A DNA stretch of 64,000 nt, taken from NCBI GenBank assembly GCA_050084515.1, contig CM114271.1, positions 46,500,001-46,564,000 on the forward strand. Reading direction: 5' to 3'. A model generated the notes under the pieces. That model was not told the origin of the DNA. It did no database searches and was given only the letters and a program-made list of their open reading frames with translations. The stretch is from Blasia pusilla (taxonomy: Eukaryota). Shown here in pieces: positions 48-41,082 of this stretch. Both the position numbers and the translations under genes were made by a program. Numbering within the stretch: position 1 is the stretch's first letter; the number at the start of each line of letters is the position of its first letter.

Positions 48-49
<2 letters not shown>

Positions 50-4249: not shown

Positions 4250-4350
<101 letters not shown>

Positions 4351-19806: not shown

Positions 19807-22800
19807 GAAGGTTGCGCAGTCGGCGTGGTTGTAGGGCTGACGGGGTTGAGCAAGGTAGAAGAAGTGGGCGGGCGCGGACATGGTAGAGCGGGCTTACCTT
19901 GGATTTTTCAGGGTTGAGATTTTTCTGACGACCTTCATAGTCCATTGGTAGTGGTTGTGTGTTGCGGATTGGGAGTGAGATGAGTTGTCCGCACCGATAG
20001 TTTGTGGTGGAGAGTGTTTCGACGGAGTGGTAGTGCTAGAGACACATGCACTGATGTCGACGGATAGTCCGCATCTGTTGACGGGAGGTTCGACGTGTTG
20101 GGCGAGGAGAATGTTGTGTTGCGGAGGTTGTCATATTACATGGAGGAGGGGATGTTGACAGTGCAGTAGGTTGGTGGGCGTGATCAGGTTACCCATTCGA
20201 GTCCCTTTTCCCGCACTTGTCGTGTGTGATTGAGAGTGTTGGGTATCGGGTAGTATCTGGTGCTAGGTGGGTGCAGTGATGGTGACGAGTGCAGACTCTT
20301 TTCATGTGTGGCATATGGTGGATATACGACGGTTGCCGAGTAGGGGTCGCATGTATGATCCGAGAGTGTCGCTAGGTTAGGTGAGTCAGTTGGGAGGCTC
20401 ATGGTGAGCCCCAAGTGTTGAGTGTGAGTGAGGCCGGGTGTGTCATCACAGGATTGACGTTAGCATAGGTGAGCTAGTGAGGAGTGTGGGAGACTCTCGG
20501 TGAGTCTGAGTGCTTGAGTGGATGAGACAGGGTTGTCATCACGGCATTCTTCCATGGTTTGGAAGAACGGGGTAGTGCGAGCAGTAGGAGTGGTGTGACA
20601 CGGAGTGGACTGAGATACCGAGGGGTTACGAATGAGGAGCTATCTTGACATCCATCCGTGGCTCGATCGTCATCACTGGACACCATGTCTGGTGACGAGA
20701 TCGCAGACGAAGGCAGTATCACTTGGCATGAGATGGACGACATGGGCCATAGGGGCATGCGTCGTTTCTCGGGTACAGTGGGCACCATGGACTTAGATGA
20801 TATTATCCAAGAGTTTGAAAACTTCCAAGAGATACGGACCTCGACACGGTTCAACCCTTTCATGGCATGGAAGGGTTTGTTCCAACACTTGGAGAGTCCT
20901 CTGATGGATGATTATATGGAGTTTCAATCACCATATTAGCTAGAGATTTATGCCTGGAGGATGTATTGGGCTCCAGGGTATGTGTCCATTAGTGGTCGCA
21001 AGGCATATGATGGGATCGTGAGAGGAGAGAGACCCACATCATCAGCCCGGAGACTAGATGGAGAGGAGGGCAGTGAGACAGGCGATGTGGTAGAGACCTC
21101 TGGTGGTAGAGGGCCACCTAGCTTCAGTCCCACAATGGAGTTCTTCTGACAGTTAGGGAAGAGCTACCAGGGCGTACGCACCGACAAGTTGAAGAGTATA
21201 CATGATTTTTAGCAACGATCGGGGGAGAGTCTGAGAGAGGCATTCACGCGCATGAGGAGGCTGATCATTGCTACGTATGGAGTGACTAAGGCGCAGTCAG
21301 TCCAGTATTGGTACGGGGTTCTGGACCGAGAACTACGTAGGAGAGTCCGAGATGCGGTGCTGATTCACACACCGAAGCCCACATTGAAGGTGGTCTTTGA
21401 GTTGTTTGAGCGTATTGAGCTCAACATGAGTGAGGATCAGGTAGTGACCGCTGGATTTTCTTGAGAGTCGACGGGTCCACGATCGACGGTGACCCCACAG
21501 GTGCCACATCGAGCACCAGTACCACGGGAGCGGGCCAGTGTGCCCAGAGAGCAGGCCGAGTACCGTGAGCCTATGAGGCAATAACCCGTACCTACACATG
21601 TTTCCCAGCAAGGACTGTTGTTGTCTTGTTGGACGATTGGAGGGGCCCATAGGCAGAGAGACTACACACAATATGGGAGAGGACCATGAGCGCCTCCGAT
21701 TACTCAAGAGCCACAGAGGATGGCCCCACCATAGTACCAGTGTGATTATTGCCATAGATATGGTCACACTAGGGATAGATGTTTTAACCTTCGTCCAGAG
21801 GCACGTCTAGAGGTAGGTCGAGGGTCTGGGGGCGGTAGTCTTGGAGATGGTCAAGGAGTTCTTCTTTGATGTGGTGGTAGAGAACCACCACCAGCCAGAG
21901 GAGATGGAGCAGGAGCATCAAAGTCGGCACTTCTCTCATGCATCGATCAGTTGGAGCAGAGGATTGTTGTCATAACGATGATGCACCTCAGGGAAGGCAC
22001 GGAGCCGCAAGAAGCTAGTGTGGCTCCAGCTTCTACCTCTTACCTTGACCCGGGTGAGGATCTCGCTAGTATAGGGTTTATGTGTAGTGCAGCTCAGGTT
22101 GAGGCGGCTGCAATGGTGACTAGGGGTGCTCCAAGAGGCATCGATCCGTCAAGATGTGGAGTTGAGATTGACCTACCGGAGGGTACCGATGGGCGGTAGG
22201 CCAAGCTTCCACAATCATTCATATTGTGGAAGGCACTAAACACACCATCGATGGTGCCTCGATGACCAACGGTGCCTACAGCTCGGGCAGGTACGTCGAC
22301 ATCACGAGGAGTTGGAGTGACAACTCCTATGCCGACTCGAGTGGAATCAATGTCGACCATAGTGTTGGAGGTGGCCATCAGAGTGAGTCAGAATCTGCTA
22401 TTTTCCGCCATAGAGTTGGCAATGTTGGGAGTTGGACTAGCTGAGGTGTTCTGGCTGGGAGGTGCGGTAAGAGGAGAGGAAGAGAGGAAGATAGGAGAGA
22501 GGAAACTACCTTCAACCGAAATAAATACTTTTTTTTAAGAGAGTTTCCGTTGGGTTGAAGAGAGGAAACTTTTTGTTTTAATTTTTTTGCACTTTTTTGC
22601 AGTCCCACAGTTTTTTTTTCCTCTTCCATATTTTGGCAAGCCCTCTAAGTCCGACGAGTTGCAAATTGCACAAAATTTAGAAAACTGAAAAATCAGTGGA
22701 ATCATAAGTGTGGAACCAATCACTTTTTCCATCCAAGGTATGGAAAAAATCTATCATTTGCCCCGGGCTGAATAGAGTTCAAGCTCAAAGTGAAGGTTCA

Positions 22801-22840
22801 GGAAAAATAAAAGTACAATCTAAAACCTCATTTTGCATCC

Positions 22841-25800
22841 TCAAAGTGGTTTGTTTAAAATACTTCGCACTTCTTTGAGGGACAGAATTGGTTGGTGGAT
22901 TCCTACTCCTACCTCCGACTCTCTTAAAACTACCAGCAACACATAGTACATGTGCTTACAAGGGAAATACCTTTTTCCACTTGTCTCTCTTTGGACAAAG
23001 TCATCACATGAACATGTGGGAAAGCAACAGATGTGCACCACATACACCCCTATGACACTTGAATTTACAGTGTTGTTCCTGAACCAATACATCCTTCCTA
23101 TTCCATTGCCACTCAAGACATCTTTCGTGGCGATGATCTCCATTTTTGCCTCCCGAGTTGATGCAACTCGCTTTGCTCTCTCCACCGTTGGCCTACACAT
23201 TCTGTTTCTCTTCATCCCATTTCTAGACTCAAATAGAAATAATGGATTGAGATCATCCACCTTCTCCGGGTACATGTTGACATCAATCTTGGATTGAATA
23301 CGAAATGCGAAGGTCTCTATAATGCGAACATGCTCGAACTTCCCCGCTCTACGAGTCCAAGCCGGCACTTGTAAGATTGTCCACGCCGCCTTGAGTGCGA
23401 TTCGTCACTGCGGCGATGGGCCAAATCGTGGGGTATTCCCGGAGCTCCAATGGCGCCGGATAAGACTTCCGGAAAGCGCAAGATTCATTTGGGAAAAGAA
23501 GTACTTCAATTGATCCCCGGTCCTCGTGAACGATCAAAGGTTTTGAGTCCCCAAAACCGCAAAGTGATCATCGGTCCTTGTATAGTTCTTATTTAGGAAA
23601 GTGTTGTATGCTCTCCTAATGCCATCAGATCCCGCCCCCGCAGTGGGTCCACGCCCTGGGTTGCTCCGAGATATATGCCACCGTTTTAGGTTGCAATCCA
23701 CCTCCATTACCGGAATCCCATATTGTTGAACCACCCAAAGGTGATGGATGTTGTGAACTTCCAAAGAACGGAGGGCTTTTGAAATAAAAAAATTCACTGA
23801 TTTTGGAGAAGTAACTCCATCACGGATTTGGGACAGGTCCGGGGTCCCCGAATACTTGGGCGGCGTAATTTCCTCATCCAAATCAATCACCGGATTCGTT
23901 CCTCGATGCTGCCTCTTCACCTGCATGAAGTCAAGATACTTATCTAGTCTCTACAAGTCTCGCTTTGACCGCTCTACCACCATCATCAGATGGGACGTCT
24001 TGAAACCCGCCCACAAATATCCCCACCAATGTGTACGTCTTGCTCGAGGGGAGTTCCAGCTACGCACCGGTTGAAGGCTTCCACATACATTTTTTCATCA
24101 CGAGATCTCACAGCCGCCCTGACATAGAGCTCGTAGATCGACGGCCCCCTTCCTTTTGTTATGCCTTTTGTGAGGAAGATATGGGATGCTGCAGACTGTA
24201 GCATTGCTCTTGCCTGGTCTTGTTGGCATGCCTCCCCAAGTGAAATTCGTTGGCATGCTTGTGACGACCTCTAGGAGGAATGAACACTTTCTGCTCCACT
24301 TGTGTTGGGGCAGAGGGCATTTTCATGAACGTTCAATCCCTGCAACGATGGCAATGTTAGAAGGGAACGAAAATAACTCAGCAGTCAAAGACATAAGCTA
24401 CCTGTCGGAACCAGACGGGTTGCAAGCCCGAGGCATCCCATAAACGACTCTGCGACCTGTCGGGTCCCGACCTGTTGTAACCTTAAACCCACCTACTGCA
24501 ACCCGTCGGAACCAGACGGGTTGCAAGGCCGAGGCATCCCATGAACGACTCTACGACTCGTCGGGTCCCGACGTATTCCAACCATAAACCCACCTATTGC
24601 AACCCGTCGGATTCAGACGGGTTGCAAGGCCGAGGCATCCCATGAATGACTCTGCGACCCGTCGGTTTCCGTCGGGTTGCACACTCTGGTTGCACCAAAA
24701 TTCTGGATGCAACCCGTCTGTTTCTGTCGGGTTGCATACTCGGGCAACCCGTTGGTTTCCGTCGGGTTGCACACTCGGGCAACCTGTCGATTTCCGTCGG
24801 GTTGCACACTCGGGCAACCCGTCGCATCCGACAGCTTGCTTGGTTTCTTCGGTTTGAAATCCCTATAGTTCCCACGCTTCTCAACCTGAGCTGCAACTTT
24901 ACAAACAATTCTCAGCGTGAGCTTGACAAGACAAAATACTGAACTCACCTGCCGCATGAAGTTTCCCCATTGTCTCGTACGTACTCTCCACCAACTCAAC
25001 CAAGAGCACAACTCTTTGTACTTCCCCTCAATCGCATGCTTCCTCCACCACCCATGAAGTTCTTCCTGGCATTCCATGGCGTGCTTCAACGTTTTGTTGT
25101 CCTTGCAGCCTTGGAGTAGAGTGACATGCTCTGTCCTCTTATTCTCCTTGATGCAAGATTTGGTGTACCGGGTCACAAACTGTTGCCAATGGAAAGCATC
25201 CGACCTTTCCCTCTCCGGTTGAACCTCTCCACCCCAAAACACTTCTCGGATAGCAATCCACCAAGGTTGTGCATTGTCTGCCATGAACCCATAAATTTTC
25301 GGAGGTGGCCTTTTGTTTTCCTTCACCACCTCCAATAAGAGCAACCAAAGACATCTTCAACCGCCAACGTAAATGCCTTTACTTCAGACAAATATAGTTT
25401 TGAGTCCCTTCTCCACATGGTCATAAACATGAGCACCCATTGTCAACCATCCGTTCAAAGACTCAGAGCAAATATCAAAGCTTACCCAGCTCCCGTAAAG
25501 ATCTTCCTCTTCCCTCATTCGATCTATAAGATCGAGGCCACTCGACGGACCTGTGGTTGACATTTTGAAGACATAGGTCCTGGATCCCTCGCCTCCTTGG
25601 CCCATGAACTGCCATCTCTGAATGAATGGAAATCTGGAGTTAGCCTTGATTCTGGCGATGGCATCCATTTTGGCCATCTTTCCATCCAGAACTCGTATTT
25701 GACGCAGCAAATTCCGGAAGCATTCAGGATCAGCGGAAAATGCGAGATTTTCCCAAAGTTGTTTCTCCTCAGCCACCGTGATCTCATCCTGTCCAGGGAT

Positions 25801-26958
25801 TCCAAGCAATTGTTCACAAATTTGTGATGCCGTTGTGAGTTTGATCACTCCGGGCTTTGAACCTGGAGAGTTTCTGTAGACCTCGGCAACTTTTTTCGCC
25901 ACATCCTCCTTGATGTGTCTCTGAATTGCATCGGTCACAAGATGAGTGTGGGAGCCAACATGAACTGCCAGCCTTGTGTACTCTGACGTGGAGCCCAAGT
26001 CGTGGACAATGAAAAATATGTATGCAGGACACCCTCCAACGCAGAAGGGCGATGCCTGACAATGAGGACATCGATGGCCTCCCGGCAATATGGTGGCACC
26101 GACCTTGTATGGAGTTTCTGCATTCTTGGGGGGGAATTGCGACGTATTGACTCGCCCATTGCGCTCTAGATACGGGCATGCTGGACTTCTACACTCCAAG
26201 GATCCCACGCATTGGCGGCGGGAGACAATCCAAGGACCATATGGAATTGAAGCACTAGTCCATTGAAGCCTACACCATCGATGACAATCAGACTTTCTGT
26301 CCATATCCTTCAGGCGTCCTCCATCTTTCTTTTGAGTAGGAGCAGCAAGTGGAGGCAACTCAAAAATGCAATTACCATCGTACATGGGCGGCAGCTCATC
26401 GACAAGAATGTGCTTGAACATTTTCAAGGCCAGAGACGAAAGCAAACTATTGCCTGATACTCGCAAGTGGAACGAGTAGGCGAACAGAGGGCCCGGTTGG
26501 TGTCCGACAGATCCACTGAGGTTGATAACATCCGGAAGCTCTTTAGGAAGAACAACATTGTTACGAGCATGTGAAGTTGGAGTCGAAGCCGGATCTGCTG
26601 AGCTAGGAGTTGCAAACGTAGAGCTCGGAGCATTAGGAAATTCTCGACCGTCTACTTGGGAAACAGACGAATTCAGGGGCAGGCCGTAAACTCTATATTG
26701 ACCATTTGCTAGAGGTAAGAGATTCCATACTTTACGGTCTGCAGTCACTGGCTGGACTATCTCACCTATTATGTCCTCCATACCGTCCACCCTAACATCC
26801 TTGGATACAAAGATGGTTCCAATTTGGAGAAGAAATCGAACAGAGAGAAAATTTTCATCCACTGCTATGAAAGACTCACGGGCTTGCGGTCGAATGATTT
26901 CTGATTGGGGAAGGGCCGCCAGATGACTGCCACAAGTGAGCTTCACATAATTATCCAT
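22841..26958 (-). pseudogene. MULE-type transposase (GCM/WRKY-like Zn DNA-binding domain, DDE core, SWIM finger); exons 26958-24949 and 24339-22841
   Basis: N-terminal RQCVGSLECRSPACP...CPHC...GCPAYIFFIV...VHVGSHTH (GCM/WRKY-fold-like). D1 WVSFDIC, D2 FMADNAQ, DAFHW at the CxxH position, and catalytic E in NTSGAESVH after a GT-AG intron (24948-24340). SWIM CSCDDF...PCKHMYYV. Premature stops at 25386, ~25359 and 24273, plus frameshifts in exon 2. Confidence 0.85.
24398..24840. repeat. Palindrome array A (~10 copies of the 27-bp palindrome; ~100-bp then 35-bp periodicity) in the transposase intron
   Basis: e.g. gcaacccgtcggaaccagacgggttgc at 24498, gcaacccgtcggattcagacgggttgc at 24599, and copies at 24709/24744/24779/24814. 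Confidence 0.9.
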
Positions 26959-27021
26959 TCCCAGAAATTTTGTACGGGAGGAGGGTGAGAATGAGAAAGA
27001 GAATGAGAATGAGAAATTTTA

Positions 27022-27028
27022 ATTTATA
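27022..27028 (-). promoter_or_regulatory. TATA box of the transposase gene
   Basis: TATAAAT on the minus strand followed by a ctcatt/ctc Y-patch, ~70 bp upstream of the ATG at 26958. Confidence 0.55.
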
Positions 27029-27236
27029 GTGAATAGGAAAACAGATACTCCTGACAGATTTTTATTGACAAGATGAAGTTCAGTAGGTGACATTGTCTAA
27101 CACAATGGATCCAATTCTGTTGCAATGTGTTACCGGATTTGGGAAGCAGAGACGTGGGTTGCGAAGCACACTTCATTTTGTTGGAACACGTCGAAGTCCT
27201 AGTAACTCAACAATTAACCCAAGCTAAGCGAAGCCT

Positions 27237-27790
27237 GCAACCCGTCGGCTTCGGACGGGTTGCACGCTTCTGACTTACCTTCAAACGCAAACATGGTCGA
27301 AGCTGGCAACCCGTCGCTCTCCGACGAGTTGCTCGGATACCGCTCCTTCTTGCCCGAAGATGCCGGAGGCGTGCAAACTGTCTGTTCCCGACGAGTTCCG
27401 CACCTATTTGCCCAAAGACGGCGAGGCGTGCAACCCGTCGCCCTCCGACGGGTTGCGTAAGGGCCTCGCCTTGTTTCGCTTACATGAAGGAAGCGTGCAA
27501 CCTGTCGGACTCCGATGAGTTGCGCGGGAAGCCCGCGTTGTTAACCCTTGACGAGGGAAGCATGCAACCCAACAGTCTCCGACGGATTGCGCGGGTACGT
27601 CCCGTTCTTGTCCGAAGACGGCGGAGGCGCACAACATGTTGGTCTCCGATGGGTGCGCGGGTACCTCGCATTCTTGTCCGAAGATGGCGGAGGCGCTCAA
27701 CCCGTCGGTCTCCGACGGGTTGCTCGGGCACCTCGCGTTATCTTCCCAAGACGGCAGAGGCGCGCAACCTATCGGACTCTGACGGGTTGC
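27237..27790. repeat. Palindrome array B (~9 copies, ~67-bp period) in the shared divergent promoter
   Basis: Copies at ~27237, 27306, 27372, 27430, 27497, 27564, 27631, 27697 and 27764, with a recurring spacer ...ccgaagacggcggaggcg. Confidence 0.9.
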
Positions 27791-27879
27791 CATTTTTCAC
27801 GTCCGGACTTCCATAACGGCCGGCACGTCGCCGTCGAAAGGACGACGGGACTCAACAGTCAGCCCAACGGCTAGAAAAG

Positions 27880-27887
27880 TATAAATA
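27880..27887 (+). promoter_or_regulatory. TATA box of the ParB-MTase gene
   Basis: TATAAATA followed by a pyrimidine-rich tcatttctggtttctcattt initiator/Y-patch, upstream of the ATG at 28147. Confidence 0.6.
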
Positions 27888-29354
27888 GGGCAGAAATCGC
27901 TCATTTCTGGTTTCTCATTTCACGATCTCCATTCCTCTCTCTCCCGCGCAACAGCTGATCAGATATCGAGGGGCGTTTCACACGGCGAGTCATCGCGAGT
28001 CAAAACGAGGGAATGAGAGCGAGACGGTTCGACCAAACAATCGCGAGACGATTCGAGCTACCCATCAAGGCGACTCATCTCGACATCAGCAAGGCGACTG
28101 ATCAAGCGATTCATCGTGGACATAGGTGGAGGAATTTCCGGGAAAAATGACGAGGGAAAAATCTCTAGCAAACAAGTCTGGGAGCTTCACTCCGAAGTCC
28201 ATTAGGACTCCTGCGTCAGCATCTCCAGGGCCTCGTTCGGCAAATGAAATTAGGCAGCAGGAAATCGAGGAGCGGGAAAGGGAAGCGGAGATGCACAACC
28301 AAGAGCTTCTTGCGAGACGTGTTCAAGAGGCGCTTGATAGACAGAACGCAGAGGCTGAGACGTCGCAGGCCTTGAAGAAAAGGATCGCCGACGAAAAGAG
28401 AGAAAAGAAGCGTCTGGACGCGTGGGTGAGGAGAGCAGAATTGGCTAAAGCGAGGAGGGAAAAAGCGATAGCCATTGATGACAGCCCTGCCCGTCCAACC
28501 GAAAGTGTTGAGATGCGGGAAATGTCCCCGATGAAGTCCGGGGACACAATCAACATAGCGGAAACGCCAGAAGTTCAAATCACGGACGATGAGATCATGA
28601 GGACCGCCAGCATGGAGATGGGGACATTGCCGAAGAAGCCGGAGAGCGGTCATTCTCATCTCCAAGCCCGGCGGAAGACATCGACCTCTATCGGATCGAC
28701 GAGTTCCCAGTCGATTTTCCAGCTGCTATCTTAGACAAGTTGGTTGGTCAAGAAACCGACCCAATTTTCGAGCGGGTAAGAGAGGATCTGGGTTTTTTGA
28801 ATTATGTGAATTGCAATTCATTGGGAATTCAGTGTAGCTTATTGATCTTGTCCTGGTTCTGACAGGTGGTAAAGCAGATGGCACTGATGGAGGGCCATAA
28901 CGCCCCGAGGATTCCACTATGCCGATTGCGGAAAATGGAATACGTCCGCAAAATTCAGTCCGACGAGGACATCGCGAAGCTTAAACAATCGGCGGCGACA
29001 ACATCCTACGTCGACAACTTTCCTCCCTTCTATGTTCAGCCTTACGTTGAGCATGGAACCCAAGCCTTGGTTACGGAGGAGGACTTGGATAAGCTCGACA
29101 CATTCTGGAGGATGAGAGACCAGGATTTCAGAAGGCAAGTAGAGGGCACGGAATTCAGCTAGATGAGGAATCTGTATTTCTTCATCTGGGATGGAAATCA
29201 CAGGTTTATGGCGTGGACCAAGTTTGCAGAGGAGCGGCCCAACTCCTTGGAGGCACATTTTTGCGTGAAGGCAGTGGTCCTTCATCCATTCCCTCATCAC
29301 ATGGCGACGGTGGAGATGGCAATGCATGCCATGAACACGTAAGTATCTTCTTGC

Positions 29355-30062
29355 TGCAAACCATCGGACTCCGGCAAGTTGTTTGGGTCGGCAATCGTTG
29401 TTGGGATGCTTTTGTTAAACGCAACTCGTCGGACTCACGGCGAGTTGATTGATTGATGAATGGGTTAGGTTATTGTTTGCCGAAAGCAACTCGTCGGACT
29501 CCGACGAGTTGCTCGACTCGACGCCTTTTCAAGATGTTTTTTGAAGAATGCAAGTCGTTGGACTCCGACGAGTTGTTCGACTGACCACAGGTTTAATAAG
29601 TTTTTGCCCCAAAGCAACCCGTCGGAGTCCGACGGGTTGCTTGACTCGCCGCCTTTTCAGGATGTTTTTTGAAGAAAGCAACTCGTCGGACTCCGACGAG
29701 TTGTTCGACTGACCGCAGGTTTAGTATGTTTTTGGCCCAAAGAAACCCGTCGGAGTCCGACGGGTTGTTTGACTCGAAACTGTTTTTGGCCGAAATCAAC
29801 TCGTCGGAGTCCGACGGGTTGCATTCGGAAGTTGGTTTGGCAAATTTTGCATCAAATTGCAAGTTTCCATTCAATTGCGCAACTTTTCGGACTCCGACGG
29901 GTTGCTATGTTCACGTTTGATACAGACTATCTAACAACCCGTCGGAGTCCGACGGGTTGCATCATTTAGCTTGTTGCTAGAATCCGACCTTGAGCTGTGA
30001 CGACCCGTCGGACTCCGACGAGTTGGAGGAACCCATGTAACTTACAAATTTTCTGACGGGTT
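29355..30062. repeat. Palindrome array C (~11 copies, ~64-bp period) in intron 2 of the ParB-MTase gene
   Basis: Includes a perfect aagcaacccgtcgga-g-tccgacgggttgctt at 29612-29642. Other copies at 29486, 29550, 29678, 29742, 29796, 29934 and 30000. Confidence 0.92.
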
Positions 30063-32208
30063 GAGTTTGGATGTGCAGGATTGTATCGGAGGGGAATGTC
30101 ACCCACCACTCGATCCAGGACTGCGATCGGGTGAAGAAGGTGCTTACGACGCACCCGGGAGAGTACAAGGGGTTCTTGGGGGACGCCCTGGTAAATCAGA
30201 TGCTTGCAAAGGGTGCATAGATAAAAAAGAAAACTTGGGCAAATAAGTTTATTTCCCAAGATGCAGCCGTAACCATCCTTTGCTTTGGTCAAAGATACAC
30301 GCCCAAGAAGAGCGAGACCGAGCTAGAGCGGAGGGAGAAAGTATCTGGGTCTGAGCGCGCAAAATTCATCCAAGCTGCAGTATCTGCAGCCTCAAAATAC
30401 ACGGCGAGCAAGATGCAACGATACATCAGCATTCTCAACCCCGAACTTGGTCTGGAGTTTTACAAGGAGCTGAAGGCGATTATCAAGCGCCAGCGGAAAA
30501 GGGATGAAGATCCGCAAGGTCGGATTGGGGAGAAAGTGTCCCTGGATCGCGTGCATCGGTTTGCGTTGTCCGGCATGAGTGAGTTTAGGAGGATCCGACT
30601 GATGAAAATTAGTCTCGAGGGCATAGAGGCCCAGAAGAGGGCGGCACACCATCCTCCGAGTATGTCCGATCCAGTGATCTCCCACTCGCTACGCGAATGG
30701 TCGTTCTGGGACGCGTTGCGGGTTATCGGGAAGTCCCGTGCCGGACGGCCTGCAAGCGGAGCTCAAAAGATTAGAGCCCATTCCGGATGAAGCAAACCTG
30801 GAAAGTTCTGTAGATTTTGAGGTTTGGCTCGACGACATCCGAGACAAGCCAATCAAAAACCCAGGATTCAAGACAATGTTCAAGGTTTGCGTCCTCCCTC
30901 ACGCAGAGCTTGAGGAAGAAATCAAGGGGAACAAACGGGATCAAGCAAAGAAGAAGCGAGATCTACAGGAGCAGACGGCGGATTCAGTTTGAGTAAAAGT
31001 CGCCAACGGATGGTCTTGGTACCTGCGTCCAAGTGTAAGAATGCAGTACTGGGAAAATTACCGGCAGCCTTGAAATTGTGGGCTTTGCCACCTGATGGAG
31101 AGACATTCTCCATGTACGACATGGAGATGGGGCAGCACATGTCCGATTGGGAGGTGGAGAATTTCCCCATTTGGCTTGACTTCAACGACCCTGAAGACAT
31201 CACCGATAAGGATTTACCATTGCTTCATGATGCAGCGGCCTCAGGACAAGACAACATCCCCAATTTTGTGCAGCTTGAAGACTTCTTCGGAGGAGATGCG
31301 GAAGAGCAAGCCCACGAGACAGCTGAGTTGGCTTCCAAGGTTCGCACAGCCAAAGACAAATCCACAGCGGGTCTCAAAGGCAAGGCGAGGGGAGGGAAAA
31401 ATTCTGAGGCCGAGTCTTCCCAAAGAGAGGCTGGAGATTCTAGGCCAGAGGCGGAATCTTCCGGGCGAGCGGGGAGTGAGGGTCGGAACAGGTCCTCGGC
31501 GAAAAAAACCCTACCAGAGTCTGAGGTCATAGAGACCCCGACAAGCCGTCCGCAGACTCGGGAGAAGCGGAAGCGAGAGGTGCCAGGGTTGTCCCAAGGA
31601 GAATACAGTTCCATCATCCTTGGGAAGACACACACAAACAACGACCCGGACAAGCGTCCTCCTTCAGTTCACTCCTTTACTGGATGAGCTGAAAAGCTTC
31701 AGTTCTCAAGCGTCGACACCAGCCATTGATAAATTGACAACGCTCGAACGGAAGCTCCAACAAAACGGGCACGCTGCCTGGACGGTGAATGGAGTGGTCG
31801 AAGAGGTTGGGGTGGATCTCTTGATCGCTGATCTGCCCTCGGGGTTGCGACTGTGGGGAGAGAATCCGTCGGACGGGGTACCTGACTGGAATGTGCCGCT
31901 CTCTTATGACCAAATTGCGCTATTGTTCTCCTTTGCAGACGCCTATCTGAGTGACAGGGGCTGCTTCTTAGTGTTGACTGGAGGGAGCGAGGACGAGCTC
32001 TTCAACCTCCAGTGCGTCAAGAGGTTGCTAAAGTGGAGGACGGCGCAATCGTGGATCATAAAAAATGAGTATCCACTCCGATCCGCGACAAGTCAGATTC
32101 GGGCAAGGCTTAATTCCTGTAGTAAAATCTCAAATATATTTTCAGATTCGGGTAAGGCTCAATGCGTGTGAAATTCAGATAGTATATCTCCGTTGTTTTT
32201 GTCCGTGA

Positions 32209-32487
32209 GCAACCCGTCGGAAGGCGACGAGTTGCTGGCTTAGAGCAGCCCATGCTCGGCTAAGAGCAACCCGTCGGTTTCCAACGGGTTGCATCTTTCC
32301 CAGAAACACAGGGAAAACCGTGGTGTACTTGCAACCCGCCGGAACCCGACGGGTTGCAGTTGCTTTTGGTTTTTCCCTGTGTTTAGGGTTGCTCTCAGCC
32401 GAGCATGGGCTGCTCTAGGCCAGCAACCCGTCGCCTTCCGACGGGTTGGTCAGGGAAAAAACAACCCGTCGGACTCCGACAGGTTGA
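32209..32487. repeat. Palindrome array D (5 copies) embedded in a long fold-back in intron 3 of the ParB-MTase gene
   Basis: 32209-32272 is the near-perfect reverse complement of ~32386-32448. Inner arms are aaacacagggaaaacc / ggtttttccctgtgttt. Confidence 0.88.
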
Positions 32488-33164
32488 TCCAAAGTAAGTA
32501 ATTGAAAAAAGTTATCTAGGGTCAAGCCGAGTTCTTTGGTGACGTGTTGCATATTATGCCAAGTTGCTGACATTTTTTCCAACGTGCTTCTTTACAGATG
32601 GACCACTCCTACGTTTATTGCTTCCTTCGGCCCGAGCACAATTTCTAGGTGTTCAAGATCCAGGATCCTGTGGATCCATGCTCAGATGGGTACAACTTAG
32701 ATAGTTTGTACAATTCCCCCCCGGGAATTTACATGCAAGACGGTACCCCACTTCTTGGAGGAAGGGAAAAGTTGCTAGCCCTGATGCAAACGCTCATCGA
32801 GCTCTGCTCAAAGCCGGGTGACTTGGTGTTCGACTTAGTGGGACTTTCAGGGGCAAGTATCAAAGGCGCATGGCAGAGTGGCAGGAACATTCTTTGCCTC
32901 GAGGGAAGGCAAGAACTGTTTGACCTTTGCAAGGAGGCAAAGGCAGAATACGAAGGGCTGGTTGGGGCGTACAACTCTCCACCGAAGCCAAGAGCTCCGG
33001 TTCCAGACCCACCATTGGTAGTGACTCCATCGTCACTTCCAATGATTCCGAAAATCGGGAGGGCAAGGCCGAAAGTAATTTTGCAAGAGTTCTCGGACGA
33101 TGACGAGTGAGTTCAAAGAACTCAAGGACCCACCTTGACTGCAGCGTTTGGAGTAGGGAGTTAT

Positions 33165-34300
33165 TTGATGATGAGGCAAAAGATTTCATAAAATAGATCA
33201 AATGTACAATTCCGAGCTTTTTTCGGATGATATAAAGGAGATGATTTTTTCGAACGATGGTGGTGCTTGTAAAAGTTTGCTGAACATTTTTTTGTCTTTT
33301 CGAATGTGATCGTTTATGTACTCCACGGACTTCTATTTTGCAACCCGTCAAATTTCTCCTGCTTGCAACTTTTCACTTTTTGACGATAGCACCTTTTTAC
33401 CACTTCCAGGCAACCTGTCGGATTCCGACAGGTTGCCTGATCGGACTCTTTCCCTGTTGGTCCAACTTAAGAGGCAGTATGGCAAGCTTCTTCCCTTGGC
33501 AGCTTCCCCTCAACTCGTAAAGGCAGGCGTAGGCTTCTTTTCTTCTCTCATACGTGTTGGATTCCTACTACCTGTGCGATTGCCATAATGGTATTACCAA
33601 GGACGGAGCACATATTGATATTGGATGGGTGTCACATTGCAGAGCGTACAAGGTATACTGCCAAGGAAGGCGGTGGGACTCAAACCAGGTTACATGGGAC
33701 CGTTATGGCGTACCTAGGGGGGGGCCAAGGCTCTCAAATTTGCCAACATTTTTTATCCCCGTCTACAATCGGCCAGAGGAGCCACTTGTATCCTAGGACA
33801 TTCCTTTTGTATTGTCACCGAGGAGAGTTATGAGTAAATTTGTAGATGACGAGGCTGAAGAAATCATAGACTAGGTCAAATGTACATTTCCGAGGTTCCT
33901 TCGGAGGTAATAAAGGTCGAGATTTTTTCAACCGACAATGGTGTTTGTAAAAGTTTGCTGGAAATTTTTTTGGGACTAGTGCATTGTGTTATTTTAGCTA
34001 CTCGGAATTACAATTTTGCAACCCATATGATTCCGACGGGTTGCAACTTTGAGCTTTTTGCCCACTGCAACTTTTTAACCATTTCGGACAAGTCGTATCG
34101 AATTTCGACAGTTGGTCGCTAAGTGATCGGACTCTTTCCTGTGAGACCAACCGACGATTGTGGCGGGCTTCTTAACTTTTGGCTCGTTCCCCTACATTCG
34201 TCAAACCAGTTGTAGGCTTCTTTTCTTGTCTAAGATGTGCAGGATTCCTACTACCTGTCGGATTGCCATTTCGGATTCCCAACCTGTTAGATTGTCGTGG
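33165..34300. repeat. Diverged tandem duplication (~680-bp offset) near the right end of the MULE, each unit carrying palindrome copies
   Basis: 33167-33590 aligns with 33845-34270 (gatgatgaggc...caaatgtaca...gtaaaagtttgctg...gatcggactctttcc...ggattcctactacctgt). Palindromes at 33410 and 34018. Confidence 0.8.
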
Positions 34301-35949
34301 GTGCAAGGTGGAAGAAAATCACTTCTAAAAATCTTTCCTTTCTTATGGTGAGCTTTCTTACGGGTTGGGAGGGGTGCAACTTCTCGGTTTCTCAACTTTA
34401 GGATCTGAATGAAGGGACATCAGTTCCTCTTTACTCCAGACAGCTAACAATCTTTTGGTTCAATTATCCTCTCATGTGTTCACATTTCACAAAGTTGGTC
34501 TTGAGCAGACACCATTCATAACCAACAGAAAGTTGGTTATGGGGCAATTTAGGGGAGGCCATGATGCAGGCAACAATCCCTGCAAAAAGAGAGGTTGGCA
34601 TTCGGATGGTCCTTCAACAAAAATACCCATGGGCACTGCTTTTTGTAGACCGAGACAGGTAATGTTAAGAAACTTAGGCTCACATGGAGAGTGATGGAAA
34701 AATGTTTGTAGTGGTCTTATGATGTCTACTTTTTTTTCGCCCCCTGGAAAAAGGAGGTTTCTTTAGGCCCGAATGTGGACCACTACCTACTCTCTTCTAA
34801 AGATTTCATGAATTTGAAAGCAAACAAAAATTTCAAATATGTCAAAAAGTTTTGAAGAGAGGAGGCGGATTTGGCCCTTTTTTTTAAAGAGAGACTCTCC
34901 TCTCTTCCTCTCTTCTTCTCCTCTCTTACTCTCTCCTGCCAGAATACCAGCCCCCTCTGGCTGGCCGCCACGTTGTGTGAGCGTGGAGAGGTGACTGCTT
35001 CTTGTTCAGAGGTGATTGAGGAGGTGGTGGACTTGCCCTTAGAGTCGATGCTCAGGACGTCCCCCACAGAGTCATGGCATGCGGCGGCGGTGAAGTTGGT
35101 AGATATGCCAGCTTGACCGACCATAGAGCAAGCAGTGGTGACACGTGGAGTAATGTTAGTGGATAACTGAGTTGGAGTATTTTGCTTGGTTAGTCTGACG
35201 GGGATAGTATATAACCCACAACACGTCCTACTTGATTCGGGAGCGCAGCCCTTGATGTTAGGGAAGCCGACGTATTTAGCGTTGGGGTTACGGAAGGCCG
35301 ATATTGAGCCTTGTCCCTTCCAGATACAGACCTCAATTGGGGCGTGTCACCCACGGAGTATATGAATCGATAGGAGATAGTTGTCAAAGTCCAGCCAGAG
35401 CATGCGACGGATAGTGCTATGGTGCGCACATGTGCGATTACGACACCAGCTGAGTCGTACGATGTGTTGGTGGGGAGAACAGTGTTATATCTCCTAGGAT
35501 TCATCGTGGACTTCTGGGAGGAGACCGTTGCTTATCGGCCACGGTGGCGGTCAGGTGATGGCCAGATGAGTCACTTACCCTTGCAGTTTTGAGACAAGGT
35601 GATCGATCACAAGACGAGTTTGTGATCACATTGGCAGCTTTCACAGGTAGTGTTAGTTGGCTAGGAGAGTTGTGAGAGGGGAACGCACATGCAGAGGATG
35701 TCCCAGTAGCTGATAGTCCCACGGAGAGACAGGCCATGGCGGCTGTCTCTTCCCATGATGGTGAGACCTCTTCACCATTGTGAGGTATAGCTCAAGAGTT
35801 ACAGAGCAGTGCCGATGACCTCGTGAGGCAGGCGTGGAGTCATGCCTTTATCCCGGAGCAGCGAGAGTCAAATGGCGATCGGGCTCATGGAGTGGAGACG
35901 TTGACCCCACTGGATACCACACCCATTGTGTGGCACAGTCTAGAGGAGG

Positions 35950-36880
35950 GTGTTAGGGTGTTAGATCTCTTCAAAGGGATTAGGACCGGATTGACTGCAG
36001 TATTGCAAGCGGGCATATGGGTGCATCAATACCTTTATGTGGAGAGAGATGAGACCATGCGACAAGTATCATTATGTCACGTAGCGAGATTGGTCCAGAG
36101 GTATCCTAAGTTGTTGGCGGTAACTACAGTACGGGGATATCAACATACACTACCCGTCAACATCTCTTTGGTGGGGGCGCACGATCTAGATAGAGTTGGC
36201 ACCATTCATTTGGTGATTGCTGGATGGCCATGTTAGGGTCATTCATCAGCTGGCCGAGGATTTGGATTGCAGGATCCGAGATCAGGAATGTTTTGGGAGA
36301 TGCTGCAAGTAATATGACACTTGCAGGAGAGCCAGATATGTTCTCCAACGTACATTTTGGAGAACGTGCCATTGTTGGGAGACACTCGTGCACGTGTGAT
36401 GACAAGTGTGCATTATGTGAGGTCTTGGTTGGGACATGCTGTGTTGTTAGATGCAACCCGAGTTGGATCATGCACCTATCATCCATGATTGTGATGGATG
36501 AACTTGATACCATCAAAGATACTGAGTCGAGCATACAATGGAGTCCAAAGAGCACCACATCTCACAGTGGATGCTATTTTGGGCTCAGGGCGTCGATCTC
36601 AGGTGGTGACGTGGGATGATAGACCACCGTTGGCGATGGCTATAGGGTGGGGGAGTTGAGGGCAGCCTTACCTATGTTGGTGAGCTTCCCAACATCCCAT
36701 GCCTTTCGTCAGGGAGGGCCAGGCATGATTTGGGATGAGGTGACCGGAGCATTGGAGGAGCCTACAGCGGATGAGCGTGAGCGCGCCATGGGGTTCGCTA
36801 TAGGTACTACGGCAGTGGTAGGGATGATTGAGGCATCCCGGAGATAGGTGTTGGGCAGGCGATGGACCTCAATGGTCTCA
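35950..36880 (+). pseudogene. Retrotransposon-encoded C5-cytosine DNA methyltransferase domain (copy 1)
   Basis: Motif I VLDLFKGI (35961), motif II YVERD, motif IV IAGWPC*GHS (PC 36228-36233), motif V DPRSGMF, motif VI ILENV (36360), degenerate motif VIII, motif IX EPTADERERAMGF and motif X LGQAMD, in canonical I-X order. Confidence 0.9.
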
Positions 36881-39800
36881 CATGGATAGTCATCACCCTA
36901 GGTATGGTTGAGCAGAGACAGATGCGAGTATCATCCATGTCGTCGCGTCCACGAGTTGAACCATTGCCTACAGGGTCTGTACAGGCATTAGGTGGGGGGG
37001 GGGGGACGAGGAGAGATAGGCACCCATGGACTTCTTGGGACGTCATTTGAGCGGAGAGTGCGAAGGCGGTCAGAGTAGCACATGTTCATTTTTTGGATGT
37101 GGAGCATGGTGTACAAGGTCAGAGTGGAGTGGTTGTTGTGGAGGTGGCTAGGGTTGCTACATAGCAACCAAAGCCGGAGGTTGCGTCCTCTCCGAGTGAG
37201 GTCACGATGGAGACTTGGGAGTTGTGATAGGTCTCAAGTTGATAGGAGGAGAGCGATGGCGAGTTCATAGGTTTTTTAGAGGGCATGTCAGTTGTTTTGC
37301 CTTCAGTATGAGAGACTTGGGTACGCTAAAGGGTCTCGGGATACGGATTGAGTTCGATAGTGATACGCCAATCTTTCGTCGACCCTACAAGTATTCTGAT
37401 ATGGAGCGAGCCTTGATTCAAAATAGGAGTCAGGACTTATTGAAGGCAGGACTTGTGGAGTTATCACATATGGAGTATGCATCTTCCACAGTCATACCGG
37501 AAACGGAGGATATGTATGGCAATTGGACGGATAGGCGGATGTGTGGAGATTACCCTCCTATCAACCGACAGACAAGATCAGATCAGTATGCCACGTCCAT
37601 TCTTGAGGAGATCTTTGATGCAGTAGGGCATGCAAAGATCTTCAGTACTTTAGATCTCCTTGCTGGCTATCATCAGGTTGGAGGACAGGGAGAAGACAAC
37701 ATTATGGGGGATAGATCGGTTCGGGAGAGATTGCTTATATCAGTGGCCGCTCTTACCATTTGGGTTGAAGAACGCGCCTACAGAGTTTCTGAGAGTGATG
37801 GATAGGATTCTAGCTGGCTTGGATTTTATACGATGTTACATAGATGATATTCTTATCTTCAGTTCCGTGGTTGAGGAGCATGAGCGACACTTGGAGGAGG
37901 TGTTTTGGCGATTGCAATTACATGGACTGAAGTTACATCCAGTCAAGTGCAGATTCTTTGAGGAGCAGATTGAGTACTTGGGACACACCATATATCCAAG
38001 TGGGTTAGGTATTCATCAGACAAAGATAGAGGCTATTACGCAGATTCCACGCCCTACAGATGTGAGTCGAGTCCGAGCGTTTCTTGGACTGGTAAACTTC
38101 TATCGACGGTATGTCAAGGGTTATAGTGCAATCGCAAAGTCTTTGACCTTGTTGACGAGACTTGATCAGGTTTGGTTGTGGGGAGATGATTAGGAGTGAG
38201 CATTTTAGGAGCTCAAGGACTGGTTGACGTCCTCGCCCATTTTACAGAGACCGATTAGGGGTCGCCCATTCTAGTTACATATGGATTGGAGCATGTTGGG
38301 TCTAGGAGCAGTGCTTACTCAGAGGGATGACGAGGAGAGGGAGTTCGTTGTGGCTTACGCAAGCTGATCAAACAATATTGCAGAGGCAAAGTACAACTCT
38401 TACGAGGGAGAGTGCTTGGCTGCAGTGTGGGCCGTGGCACATTTCAGGTGCTATTTATTCGACAACCCTTTCACACTTATCTCTAATCATCAGCCGTTGA
38501 GGTGGTTGATGGAGTCCGACAAGCTTACGGGAAATCTTGCCAGGTGGGCTCTATTACTATATGAGTATGAGTTTGAGGTGGTTCATAGGCCAAGTCGGCT
38601 GAACCAAGATGCGGATGGGTTGAGTTGTAACCCATGTCCGAGTCAGAGAGACGACACATGAGCTCGATGGCACGGAGAGAGTGATGAGGAGATGGTGCCC
38701 GAGATGTTGGTTGACTATGGTAGGTCAGTCACAGGTGATGACTCCAGTGGTGGGGTAGGCTGATGAGTCTTTGGATCCGGAGGTCAGTAAGGAGGTGACA
38801 AGTGGTCATGATATCCATGACGATGTGGAGGTTGTGGAGTTCTTGGGCACTGGCGTCATAGCGAGCATAGTGAGTGCTAGGGAGCAAGATCAAATCCTAC
38901 AGAGAACCAAGAGGTTCAGGTGGGAGGGGACTCACATTTTGCGGGTATGGGGAGATGGTAGGATACAAGTGGTACCTCATCCTTCCGAGCAAGCACGTAT
39001 AGTGCAACATGCCCATGAGGAGTTAGGGCATTTTGGAGTAAAGCATACTTACAGCTTACTCTAGATTCAGTATTGGTGGCGCGGCATGCATATTGGGGTA
39101 CAAAAATTTGTGGCCAGATGTATGGTATGTGACAAAGTACGAGCATCCTTCTTTGCTCCCACTCCGCAGTTACATCCTTTGCTGATTATGGGTTTAGGTT
39201 ATTGATGGAGTTTAGACTTTGAGGGATCTTTGCCATTGATAGGGCGTCATCACAAGTACGTGTTGGTCATGGTGGAGCATTTCTCCAAGTGGATAGAGTT
39301 GGTGGCACTACCGGACAAGGCAAGAAAGGGAACAACTTATGCGTTTCTAGATCGTGTGCTTAGTCACTTTGGTGCACCGGCGGAGGTGTTGACTGACCAG
39401 GGTACCGAGTTCAGGGGAGAGTTTCAGGCCTTGTATGATCAGGCGCTGATAGATCACCGCACCACGTCCAGAGATCATCTTGAGGCGGATGGGTTGGCGG
39501 AGAGAGTAGTACAGATGTTGAAGAGAGGATTGCGCAAGTATGGCTTGCAACGGGGACAATTGAGGGAGTGGGACCTATATTTGCCATGGTTGGCTATAGG
39601 TTATCGCTTTAATCGGAAGGCATCCTTAGCATCATTTTCACTGTACTTTTTGCTCTTTGGGAGAGAGCCACATTTACTTGTAGCTATTCGACGGAACATG
39701 GCGGAGGTGTTAGATCTTGATGATCCAGATGTGTGGGTACAAGCATGTCTCTCAGAGGGCGGAGATTTTTCGTAGAGTTATGCCTATGGCCTTTGAGAAC

Positions 39801-40468
39801 TTAGCTATTGCTCAGCATAGAGATACATTGAGGTACGCAACCATTCGTGGAGGAGGTTATCATCCAGGGATTAGGAGATTTCATCCTGGAGAATACTTGT
39901 ATTTATAGCAGGCGGCACCCACGATGCTAGATGTCACTACATGGCGCACGATCCTACGTGTGCGCGAGGTATTACCGACCGGATTCCTCATGTTGGAGGG
40001 ACAGGATGGTATGGTTTGGAAGGATCATGTGCGCAATTGTGGACCATGTCATCTTCTGAACGTAGACGGGATAGTGGATTCGAGCTTGGCAGTGGTACTT
40101 GCAGGCTTGAGGTGTATGTTGTGCGGATCTGCGAGGGGTGCAGCCACCATGTTGGTATTTGATAGTTGCTCTCAAGGGTGGCATATGTCATGTTTGACCC
40201 CCCCTCTTGATATAGTTCCCACGGGATGATGGATGTGTCCGAGATGTGTATAAGGTAGTAGGTCATGTCAGAGAGATGTGATATTTTCTATCTGGAGTTA
40301 GGGGGATCCAACTGCCAGCTAGGGGGCGATTGTGTGATCTCCATGTATATGTATGAGTTGATTTTTGTACATGTGTGGATCTACCCGTGTGTGGAGAAGA
40401 TCGATGTTATGTGGTATAGATGTGATCAGCGATGCATATTGTATAGCGATATGTATGCGCACGACAAC

Positions 40469-41082
40469 TATCACATCTGAGTAGCCCATAGGCCGAGATC
40501 TATCGTGGATAGGGCGTAAGAGCCAGTGGACTATCTTGAGTGTAACTTTGTCCCACGGTGTCGGATAAGGTTGAGGATAGGTCCATTGTGTCAGGAACAT
40601 TGTTTTTGATAACTTTCCTGTTGAGGTCTTTCACAAGTGACTTGTTGACCAGGTCACCCGCCCCTGGTAACCTGTATGCACAGGTTACCAAGTGGATAGC
40701 TATTTTTAGGGGAAGAGACTTTTGGCTCTTCCCAACCATATATAAGAGAGGAAGATGGCTTTCCTAGGCCATCTTTCTCATGTTGGGCCGTTGGAGCACC
40801 TCTCTTGTATGTGTGTGAGATAAGACTAGGGTGCTAGCGTCCGGATTCCTTGATAGCGCACGGTGGACGAGGTTCGATATGCAGATGTAGATTGAGGAGT
40901 GGAGTTTTAGGCCAAGTGTGCCGTTTTTACTACTCTTTATTTTTGTTGTGTGATCTCCATGTATATGTATGAGTTGATTTCTGTACATGTGTGGATATAC
41001 CCGTGTGTGGGGAAGATCAGTCTTGTGTGGTGTAGATGTGACCAATGATGTATGTTGTGTAGCGATATGTATGCGCACAACA
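40469..41082 (+). repeat. 3' LTR of Gypsy copy 1 (~614 bp), preceded by an extra ~135-bp copy of its own 3' end (40331-40466)
   Basis: Starts tatcacatc (tgtcacatc in the paralogue), has TATATAAG at ~40739 and ends ...gcgcacaaca. Homologous to 43164-43784 and ~49390-49692. Confidence 0.75.

Follow-up and report, generated by a model that had tools for sequence, protein, structure and literature searches.

The window analysed here is a 64-kb stretch of Blasia pusilla DNA (contig CM114271.1, positions 46,500,001 to 46,564,000), and within it positions 22459–34955 are occupied by a 12,497-bp insertion that is a dead copy of a high-copy land-plant DNA transposon family bounded by target-site duplications (TSDs). 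Opposite its decayed transposase gene the element carries an accessory gene which is a conserved part of the family, about 1150–1200 codons long. The predicted protein has a disordered acidic N-terminus, a domain likely to have the ParB/sulfiredoxin (Srx) fold, a helical middle and a C-terminal methyltransferase (MTase) fold ('MTase' is here the name of the fold and not of a demonstrated activity). Palindromes confined to the element lie between and within its genes. The explanation favoured for the whole is that of a dead Mutator-like copy with a conserved ParB/Srx–MTase-fold gene and its own palindromes, the accessory protein acting on them in cis; confidence in it is evenly balanced.

The element and its two genes

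The insertion is flanked by 9-bp direct copies of TCTGGCTGG and has an imperfect terminal inverted repeat (TIR), with 22470–22499 and 34895–34924 being 93% complementary over 30 nts. Its boundary features, none of which has a strand, are:

22450–22458: left TSD copy TCTGGCTGG (matching 9-mer, and empty-site reads sharing the 9 letters)
22459–22499: left TIR, a purine-rich GAGG/AGAGG run that pairs with the right end
34895–34955: right TIR, pairing with the left end
34956–34964: right TSD copy TCTGGCTGG (matching 9-mer, and empty-site reads)

In a sample of 1.93 Gb of raw DNA reads from the same organism (run X18), 63+76 reads join 22449 directly to 34956, skipping 12506 bases with 9 letters that fit both sides, and the same joint set 3 or 6 bases further on is present in 151+143 and 220+206 reads, respectively. 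Most copies of the flanking repeat are without the insertion, and these empty sites show that both the insertion and its 9-bp duplication are real. The 12.5-kb element with a 9-bp TSD of the original prediction, which was made from the sequence alone, is therefore borne out. Mean X18 depth over the element is 2567, corresponding to 1.65% of the bases read; it is 3085 for the transposase part and 2338 (76% of that) for the accessory gene part. The likeness of most of these reads to the element is 85–95%, from which it follows that the family is old as well as large. There is no second copy of the element within the 64-kb window.

The superfamily is most likely Mutator-like, this being the best label from the 9-bp TSD and the protein language model (Atlas) leads given below rather than from a profile match. 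Mutator-like elements (MULEs) have a TSD of about 9 bp (8–11), as here, and terminal inverted repeats are present. Long TIRs are typical of many MULEs. A related element in a metagenome locus, L014, has 703-nt TIR arms, 79% alike, at 4001–4703 and 14756–15458, about 10 kb apart, and they enclose a transposase relative, a palindrome array and a ParB-like gene.

The two genes are divergent, as had been predicted, with the transposase on the minus strand and an accessory gene of some 1200 codons, containing a GT..AG intron, on the plus strand. The accessory gene runs from an ATG at 28147 to a stop at 33110, and its parts, all on the plus strand, are:

28147–28775: exon 1, acidic and lysine-rich N-terminus (open reading frames (ORFs), reads, splice site)
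28866–29339: exon 2, ParB/Srx-like domain, IPLCR ... FFIWDGNHR (splice sites, match to Ceratodon protein P0028, fold of relatives)
30221–31687: middle region, helical, of no known family, three overlapping ORFs in two frames (ORFs, P0028 match)
31788–32081: N-terminal half of the MTase-like domain, with motif IV DLPS at 31830–31841 and a conserved VPDWN (P0028 match, motif alignment)
32649–33110: last exon, MTase-like motifs X and I (FDLVGLSGAS, 32829–32858) and the stop codon (PF01555, P0028 match)

The first intron, 28776–28865, is 90 nts long with a clean GT..AG. Exon 2, in which DGNHR at 29190–29204 is read as FFIWDGNHRFMAW, ends at the donor GT at 29340, and the matching acceptor is between about 30079 and 30240 (a start for exon 3 near 30080, guessed by eye, was given no support by BLASTP). 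Another intron, with a donor-like GT at 32152 and an AG at 32647–32648, splits the MTase-like domain, its phases being a misfit in this decayed copy. The last two coding blocks read, in order, IADLPSG...VPDWN and then GDLVFDLVGLSGAS.

Both genes are broken, which bears out the earlier description of the copy as pseudogenised. In the accessory gene there is a premature TAG at 29160–29162 in exon 2, a 1-nt loss near 28621 (an extra T follows 28621 in 1450 of 2086 family reads) and a 1-nt gain at 30735 (the base is absent from 1203 of 2365 family reads). Two further frame changes are at 30914–30992 and 31533–31687; since the ORFs of the middle region are in two frames, at least two frameshifts have occurred there. 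The transposase gene has in-frame stops and indels, and most family reads have indels at 23786 and 23985. Its ORFs span 22841–27018 and, all on the minus strand, are:

25384–27018: N-terminal 544-codon ORF, Cys/His-rich putative WRKY/GCM-type DNA-binding region and first catalytic D region (ORF, Atlas leads)
24613–25356: core ORF, FMADNAQ..AFHW, presumed second catalytic D region (Atlas lead, relatives in L036 and L070)
23986–24270 and 23534–23950: two pieces, mutually out of frame in this copy (ORFs)
22841–23404: C-terminal ORF, CxC..CxH SWIM-like zinc finger (weak PF04434 match, relative in L073)

A GCM-like/DDE/SWIM transposase had been predicted. As read from the ORFs, the D-containing motifs of the core do resemble those of DDE transposases and the CxC..CxH is visible; the match to SWIM (PF04434, E 0.012, 15.6 bits), a finger that many MULEs have at this end, is below the cut-off of 19.6, and GCM comes from an Atlas lead. 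For 24613–25356 the nearest named Atlas clusters are PF10551 MULE, at 0.88–0.89, and for 25384–27018 they are ZSWIM1-3_RNaseH-like, MULE, GCM and FLYWCH, at 0.82–0.92, in both cases as leads. A search of the PDB with the transposase gave a single chance-level match.

That the accessory gene is kept across family members is apparent from read depth, from diverged elements and from relatives in moss, liverwort and fern; members without it had been named beforehand as the finding that would speak against the prediction. An exhaustive phmmer search of 1.84 billion representative sequences with the MTase part, read through its intron, gave 14 matches at E≤1e-3 (best 1.5e-13), and a word-index search with the N-terminal half of the MTase part had found no longer relatives. 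Ten of the 14 were looked up: eight are annotated proteins (one from Riccia fluitans, six from Riccia sorocarpa and one from Ceratodon purpureus), two are in Logan only, and none of the ten is algal. A search with the ParB-like exon gave two short relatives, and the profile then built matched the Ceratodon protein M758_1G295400 (1147 aa, E 1.3e-52), two fragments of 382–385 aa and an 866-aa protein of Adiantum capillus-veneris. Four plus-strand blocks show the window gene to be collinear with P0028, the Ceratodon protein:

exon 2: P0028 aa 226–382, E 3e-25, 34% identity
30221–30790: P0028 aa 461–590, E 6e-4
N-terminal half of the MTase-like domain: P0028 aa 902–988, E 0.002
C-terminal half of the MTase-like domain: P0028 aa 1058–1118, E 3e-10, 41% identity

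For the ParB-like exon only two of 15 pairs have an unsaturated dS, and their ratios of nonsynonymous to synonymous substitution (dN/dS) are 0.21 and 0.37.

The gene pair is also found together in environmental DNA. In Joint Genome Institute (JGI) metagenome contigs the ParB-like profile detected 96 relatives, and the 80 loci kept (718 kb, 32 clusters at 90% nucleotide identity) were searched with local hidden Markov models (HMMs) of four regions and, by tblastn, with the transposase ORFs of the window (the window's match to its own HMM is circular). Among the 11 clusters with at least 5 kb downstream, five have, on the same strand as the ParB-like part, middle-region matches and, 2.5–5 kb downstream of it, MTase matches at ≤1e-3, one has a weak MTase match, one has the middle region only and four have none. 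MTase matches are also present in two clusters with shorter flanks, L064 and, via the near-identical L081, L001. Upstream and on the opposite strand, which is the arrangement of the window, transposase relatives are present in four clusters, L014/L015, L036, L070 and L073. Relatives of the core ORF were found in L036 (2e-13) and L070 (1e-9), and of the C-terminal ORF in L073 (5e-8). The viral_contigs scan found no relative. Positions 1–4691 of the 4.7-kb L081 contig hold a complete ParB-like/middle/MTase-like gene with intron-like breaks, 98.4% identical to L001; the contig is binned as an uncultured Synechococcales cyanobacterium and is probably misbinned eukaryotic (bryophyte-like) DNA, not a bacterial homologue.

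Two RNA-seq runs (same species label) yielded 683 and 837 reads, with 0 and 5 of them at ≥99% likeness. First mates are mainly plus over the transposase gene and minus over the 3′ half of the accessory gene; if the library is of the usual stranded kind, this means sense transcripts of both genes. At 28923–28959, 30–38 reads in both runs match 37 bases alone, with unrelated flanks and 100% agreement, and an abundant unrelated transcript shares this stretch. Position 33119 is joined to 33597, with other letters between, in 17 and 27 RNA reads and in 39+31 DNA reads; the 3′ segment of the expressed copies differs here, as a structural variant and not an intron.

The accessory protein and the palindromes

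The C-terminal domain is the part of the protein for which a structural assignment is firm, being modelled as a beta-class (CcrM/DpnA-like) amino-methyltransferase fold. In the window its match to PF01555 (E 3e-4, 21.2 bits) is below the 26.7-bit cut-off; the Ceratodon relative, at 30.4 bits and over model positions 2–217 of 221, and Riccia P0010, at 27.6 bits, exceed it. The family profile finds CcrM (1.8e-9) and DpnA (1e-8). In the Ceratodon model the fold has a predicted local distance difference test score (pLDDT) of 80–93 over aa 900–1125, and Foldseek gave the relative 141 matches at E≤1e-3, with CcrM best (1.9e-11) and M1.HpyAVI, M.BceJIV, bdelloid N4CMT (8s9m, 2.4e-9), MboIIA, RsrI and PvuII also matched. 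Motif IV is upstream of motif I in the window, which is the PF01555 order (IV ... X–I), and so in fold and in motif order the permuted amino-MTase of the original prediction stands. The D and second P of motif IV, VPxWN and GDxVxD..GA(S/T) are conserved from liverworts to fern, and the conservation of the latter two indicates that the MTase surface is under selection.

Several Riccia homologues are publicly named 'DNA methylase N-4/N-6 domain-containing protein' or 'Trimethylguanosine synthase'. The latter, borne in UniRef by P0007, P0010, P0012 and P0018 of Riccia sorocarpa, is probably a wrong automatic name, as judged from the PF01555-type fold and the transposon context.

The assignment of the exon-2 domain to the ParB/Srx fold is likely, and is based on modelling. 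The fold was tested on a 216-aa relative, P0027, rather than on the broken exon of the window, using AlphaFold2 with a 7-sequence alignment. The model has a pLDDT of 70–92 over residues 70–200, and the same domain in the full-length Ceratodon model reaches 96. The best Foldseek match to P0027 in the PDB is Bacillus subtilis ParB with bound cytidine diphosphate (CDP), at a probability of 0.94, and 26 of 26 among the matches listed (ranks 1–34) are ParB (with CDP or the cytidine triphosphate (CTP) analogue CTPgammaS), Noc, KorB, PadC, sulfiredoxin, SbnI, a serine kinase or Atu1540. A nucleotide-binding motif of the type G-x-x-R is characteristic of the ParB/Srx superfamily, and in the present family all 6 sequences aligned have WDGNHR unchanged, while the Adiantum protein has a degenerate form; we take the family's GNHR to resemble sulfiredoxin's GCHR more than the GERR found in ParB. 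The only Pfam match of window exon 2 is DUF1015, at E 0.018. In the Ceratodon model the approximately 500 residues that follow the ParB-like domain are helical or disordered, with low confidence. Prediction of a homodimer (P0027 residues 62–216, 2 copies) scored 0.00, which is evidence neither way.

The element-specific palindromes had also been predicted, and here the earlier reading was right. A 27-bp palindrome, CAACCCGTCGG-N3-CCGACGGGTTG, has 28 sites when up to 3 mismatches are allowed (0 expected, from 100 shuffles), all of them within 24398–34043; written as GCAACCCGTCGG-N3-CCGACGGGTTGC, where the mismatches are counted over 22 specified bases, these are the same 28. The other 51.5 kb of the window have none, and the element also contains every one of the half-sites detected with at most 1 mismatch (54 of 54). 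The sites avoid coding sequence and are distributed as follows:

24398–24804: cluster a, 7 sites, non-coding gap (presumed intron) of the transposase gene
27238–27789: cluster b, 6 sites, between the divergent genes
29487–30025: cluster c, 8 sites, intron after the ParB-like exon
32210–32486: cluster d, 5 sites, intron splitting the MTase-like domain
33411–33435 and 34019–34043: two isolated palindromes, 3′ non-coding part

The sequence flanking the 27-mer core differs between clusters.

Related loci have arrays of their own. Of the 20 cluster representatives with at least 1.5 kb upstream of the ParB-like gene, 11 have in that region a repeated 12-mer with at least 10 sites (downstream and shuffled controls have 4–8, except for L080 with 19 downstream), with two of the 11 12-mers being CT-rich low complexity. 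A palindromic consensus is present upstream in 6 of the 20, with five different motifs:

L070 and L014: GAGCTTCTTTTGG..CCAAAAGAAGCTC
L051: GAGCTACTCTTGG-CA-CCAAGAGTAGCTC
L031: ATGGTTAAATTAACCAT
L036: TTCCAAcattTTGGAA and ATGCATCGATGCAT
L073: GGGGAG..CTCCCC

Three of the relatives' motifs have the format of that in the window, with 12–13-nt arms, a 2–3-nt centre and GG/CC flanks. A motif that changes while its position is constant is suggestive, being what a co-evolving pair of protein and site would predict.

Weighing the explanations

The accessory protein is proposed to act in cis on its own element. It would recognise the palindrome arrays, probably as a dimer, and occupy or mark the DNA or chromatin of the element, and such occupation or marking would favour expression of the element or shield it from host silencing. 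The role inferred for it would be the self-recognition proposed for algal ParB–MTase accessory proteins, and analogous to that of VANC (both considered below). A more specific version, which we regard as unlikely, is that of a co-evolving pair in which a ParB-type protein, dependent on a nucleotide, would be loaded at the 27-bp palindromes and would either write N6-methyladenine (6mA) or N4-methylcytosine (4mC), by means of a non-canonical site, or block 5-methylcytosine (5mC) in cis. If this is true, the transposon would encode an epigenetic system for marking itself, such a system would go some way to explain how the family came to be about 1.6% of the genome, and the idea would be testable in tractable bryophytes such as Ceratodon.

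A number of results weigh against the favoured explanation. Concerning the first domain, the Pfam ParB-clan profile matches neither the window exon nor 6 relatives, and no ParB emerged when the sequences of the PDB were searched with the ParB-like exon or with its 3-sequence profile. No Foldseek match to P0027 attains E≤1e-3 (best E 0.12, with a template modelling (TM) score of about 0.3). As regards the ParB/Srx DGNHR signature originally claimed, WDGNHR is present and conserved, and the structural matches behind the fold are uniform in kind with none at that threshold. In canonical ParB a helix-turn-helix (HTH) after the N-domain reads the palindrome, and clamping is CTP-dependent; neither Pfam nor Foldseek finds an HTH or other DNA-reading module in the 1147-aa relative. 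Concerning the MTase-like domain, the catalytic tetrapeptide is not canonical. Where the consensus is (D/N/S)PP(Y/F/W), each of the 17 family sequences has D-x-P-x at motif IV; the window reads DLPS, and the relatives' versions include DLPK, DAPE, DVPE and DFPT. An aromatic residue is lacking in 16 of 17 (the exception is DTPF of P0028), and PP likewise in 16 of 17 (the exception is DPPT of P0008). In the alignment of the profile to CcrM, the DlPeg of the family is opposite DPPYN. This replacement of DPPY makes methyl transfer doubtful, and motif I is loose in the family. Beyond the weak SWIM match, neither Pfam MULE (PF10551) nor another family matches the transposase at E≤5, even with 24613–27018 read through two stops. 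The RNA reads are few and almost all <95% alike to the element, and so derive from other copies. As to the palindromes, the related loci, 718 kb in all, do not contain the half-site of the window. Exact-word scans of these loci for recurrent short-loop palindromes found none, with the arrays emerging in mismatch-tolerant scans only. The threshold for these was chosen post hoc and most clusters have no detected array, for which reason the arrays of the relatives are suggestive only. The co-occurrence of gene and array that the original prediction had proposed to check is seen, with own arrays, in six of 20 related clusters, and not for the window motif itself. It is just as conceivable that the arrays are there for the transposase or for the promoters.

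The MTase-like domain may be a pseudo-enzyme which binds the DNA of the element or S-adenosylmethionine (SAM), transfers no methyl group and serves as a shield or scaffold, much like METTL14 or the MTase domain of DIRS1, partners that are catalytically dead. This is a real possibility, clearly short of an even one, and it is compatible with the model in which the accessory protein binds its own element. From the motifs, the odds of a binding or scaffolding pseudo-enzyme and those of an active 6mA/4mC enzyme would be roughly equal. The uniform D-x-P-x speaks for the former, as does the precedent of DIRS1, whose MTase domains were judged inactive on the same kind of argument in the available portion of Iyer et al. 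(PMC4738411). The retention from liverworts to fern of the motif IV D and second P, with VPxWN and GDxVxD..GA(S/T), implies selection on the surface, however, and in the Ceratodon model the fold is intact; active sites of non-canonical type are possible.

Rather doubtful is the alternative that the palindromes are sites for the transposase, as subterminal or internal transposition enhancers, or parts of a bidirectional promoter, with the accessory protein acting elsewhere, for instance on host chromatin or transposition intermediates. The location of cluster b exactly between the divergent genes, and of the relatives' arrays just upstream of the ParB gene, suits promoter elements, and it is the transposase that has a cysteine-rich putative DNA-binding region while for the accessory protein Pfam and Foldseek provided no DNA-reading domain. 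However, 22 of the 28 sites are not intergenic but belong to the introns of the two genes or to the 3′ part. Transposase sites are usually in or near TIRs, yet only one half-site-like stretch (22650–22663) is near an end of the element. Further, in the available portion of the red algal report discussed below, the association of ParB gene and array recurs in elements with an unrelated transposase superfamily.

It is very unlikely that the palindromes are selected hairpins (RNA or cruciform, as intron structure or a small-RNA source) or an invading foldback repeat. Stems of 12 bp, perfect or nearly so, enclose a 3-nt loop, with 89.9% of cells paired, and symmetry is kept after a change in both arms at 3 sites, 29487, 29679 and 33411. 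But covariation is at the level of chance, with the 3 double-changed cells being reached by 195 of 500 shuffles and the score of 0.096 being that of the shuffled mean. What is conserved is therefore the sequence of the half-site, as for a protein site rather than a hairpin. With 0 of the 54 half-sites in the 51.5 kb outside the element, it is not a dispersed repeat in the window, and the core flanks differ from cluster to cluster.

One-off, Pack-MULE-like capture of a host or bacterial fragment without a role in the element can be dismissed as negligibly probable: MULEs often capture host fragments and this copy is broken, but the depth of the gene, 76% of that of the transposase in a family with 1.65% of read bases, is near enough to it to argue against a one-off event, the same gene pair is present in diverged elements, the gene is full length with its motifs in moss, liverwort and fern, and its dN/dS is as given above.

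Surroundings, known systems and meaning

The element is inserted in a long terminal repeat (LTR) retrotransposon, and the window, which is eukaryotic, also contains spliced genes, an Nramp/EIN2-like ORF and a Helitron. The host feature is:

20000–22458 and 34956–41000, plus strand: Ty3/Gypsy-like LTR retrotransposon hosting the element (RVT_1 and rve matches)

Its RVT_1 match is at 37654–38193 (E 3e-21) and its rve match at 39206–39775 (E 1e-12). The region has a strong positive GC skew, and with an X18 flank depth of about 2400 is itself very abundant. An ORF in it at 35784–36236 (plus strand) has, by eye, motifs like those of C5-cytosine methyltransferases (LDLFKGI..G and VIAGWPC); Pfam gave nothing for it at E≤0.01, and it could be a DNA methyltransferase (DNMT)-like domain in the retrotransposon, or chance. 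An ORF of 994 codons at 8593–11577 (minus strand) begins with 150 residues that match Nramp in its C-terminal part (E 1.8e-29) and continues as a long extension; streptophyte EIN2 has this layout, which speaks for a land-plant or charophyte origin of the window. A Helitron Rep fragment (Helitron_like_N, E 1.8e-46) is at 62823–63512 (minus strand).

The original prediction spoke of a possible new epigenetic system of transposable elements. Both the class of protein and the idea of self-binding are already published for algae (PMC12477816; 10.1101/2025.02.11.637652), and the comparisons that follow are with the systems as described in the available portions of the papers cited. The closest is Sola1-1_Ec32 of Ectocarpus, with a 1104-aa ParB-like + N4C/N6A-MTase protein opposite the transposase; proteins like it in transposons of green and red algae, its authors propose, may attach to the element that encodes them and modify it epigenetically (Dinatale, Craig et al., Genome Biol 2025, PMC12477816). 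By that description, in which the class is defined by both domains in one protein beside the transposase of a DNA transposon, the element here belongs to the class. The two share a single long protein with both domains (about 1200 codons here, 1147 aa in Ceratodon), its position opposite the transposase and a giant DNA transposon as carrier. They differ, as far as the description allows comparison, in that the one is a Sola1 element of a brown alga and the other a land-plant, Mutator-like element with a 9-bp TSD, and palindrome arrays are unmentioned for Sola1-1_Ec32 in the available portion of its report.

In the red alga Bostrychia, Plavaka (EnSpm) elements have a ParB accessory gene beside tandem inverted-repeat arrays, and a comparison with VANDAL was made there (Petroll et al., bioRxiv 10.1101/2025.02.11.637652). 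PAG3 of Plavaka is a ParB–2-oxoglutarate (2OG) oxygenase protein and PAG2 an N6A-MTase–SET protein, homologues are on Mutator elements of Chondrus, and the red algal accessory genes move between transposon superfamilies, including Mutator (same report). A ParB-domain protein, adjoining inverted-repeat arrays and an N6A-MTase-type domain on the same elements are common to Plavaka and the present family. However, there the domains are in two proteins, PAG2 and PAG3, while here one protein is both ParB-like and MTase-like, and here arrays are also in introns.

More distant are the ParB–HTH–Dam fusions of chlorophytes and chytrids, and the prokaryotic ParB–MTase fusions of phage ParB-Tls loci (Iyer et al., BioEssays 2016, PMC4738411). 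A ParB-related module joined to an amino-MTase, ultimately from prokaryotic mobile elements, is common to the chlorophyte Dam proteins and the one here. The former are of group 2 (M.EcoKI/M.TaqI/Dam-like) with the HTH of ParB, whereas the latter is CcrM/DpnA/PF01555-like with a ParB/Srx N-domain and an HTH undetected. The VANC protein of Arabidopsis VANDAL MULEs is thought to counteract silencing by recognising repeated motifs in the non-coding DNA of its own element (cited in 10.1101/2025.02.11.637652). As a protein it is unrelated to the one considered here, and any likeness would be of role only. The class of algal proteins, on the account in these papers, is that of brown, red and green algae, and no land-plant report of ParB transposon genes was found in the literature searched (subscription journals and supplements being outside its scope), within which their occurrence in land plants is new. 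Self-recognising transposon accessory proteins are, to our knowledge, rare, with VANC being the one studied case.

The further suggestion that such an element was the vehicle by which amino-MTases such as DN4MT1 entered plants has no support here. The beta-class fold is common to DN4MT1, bdelloid N4CMT and the family here. Motif IV of bdelloid N4CMT is SPPY, likewise a canonical form. That of Marchantia DN4MT1 is a canonical TSPPY, in contrast to the D-x-P-x of this family, and a ParB-like domain is not reported for DN4MT1 in the available portion of its paper (bioRxiv 10.1101/2021.02.12.428880). Nothing was found to link the two beyond the fold.

The loss of DPPY across the family is a warning against annotating such genes as DNA methylases. 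The ParB–MTase class has so far been described, not tested, and in algae only. It is now found in mosses, liverworts and a fern, under selection, and in a family that is more than 1% of a plant genome as measured by read bases. The lineage-specific palindrome arrays, at the same place in each, are candidate protein–site pairs for transformable bryophytes.

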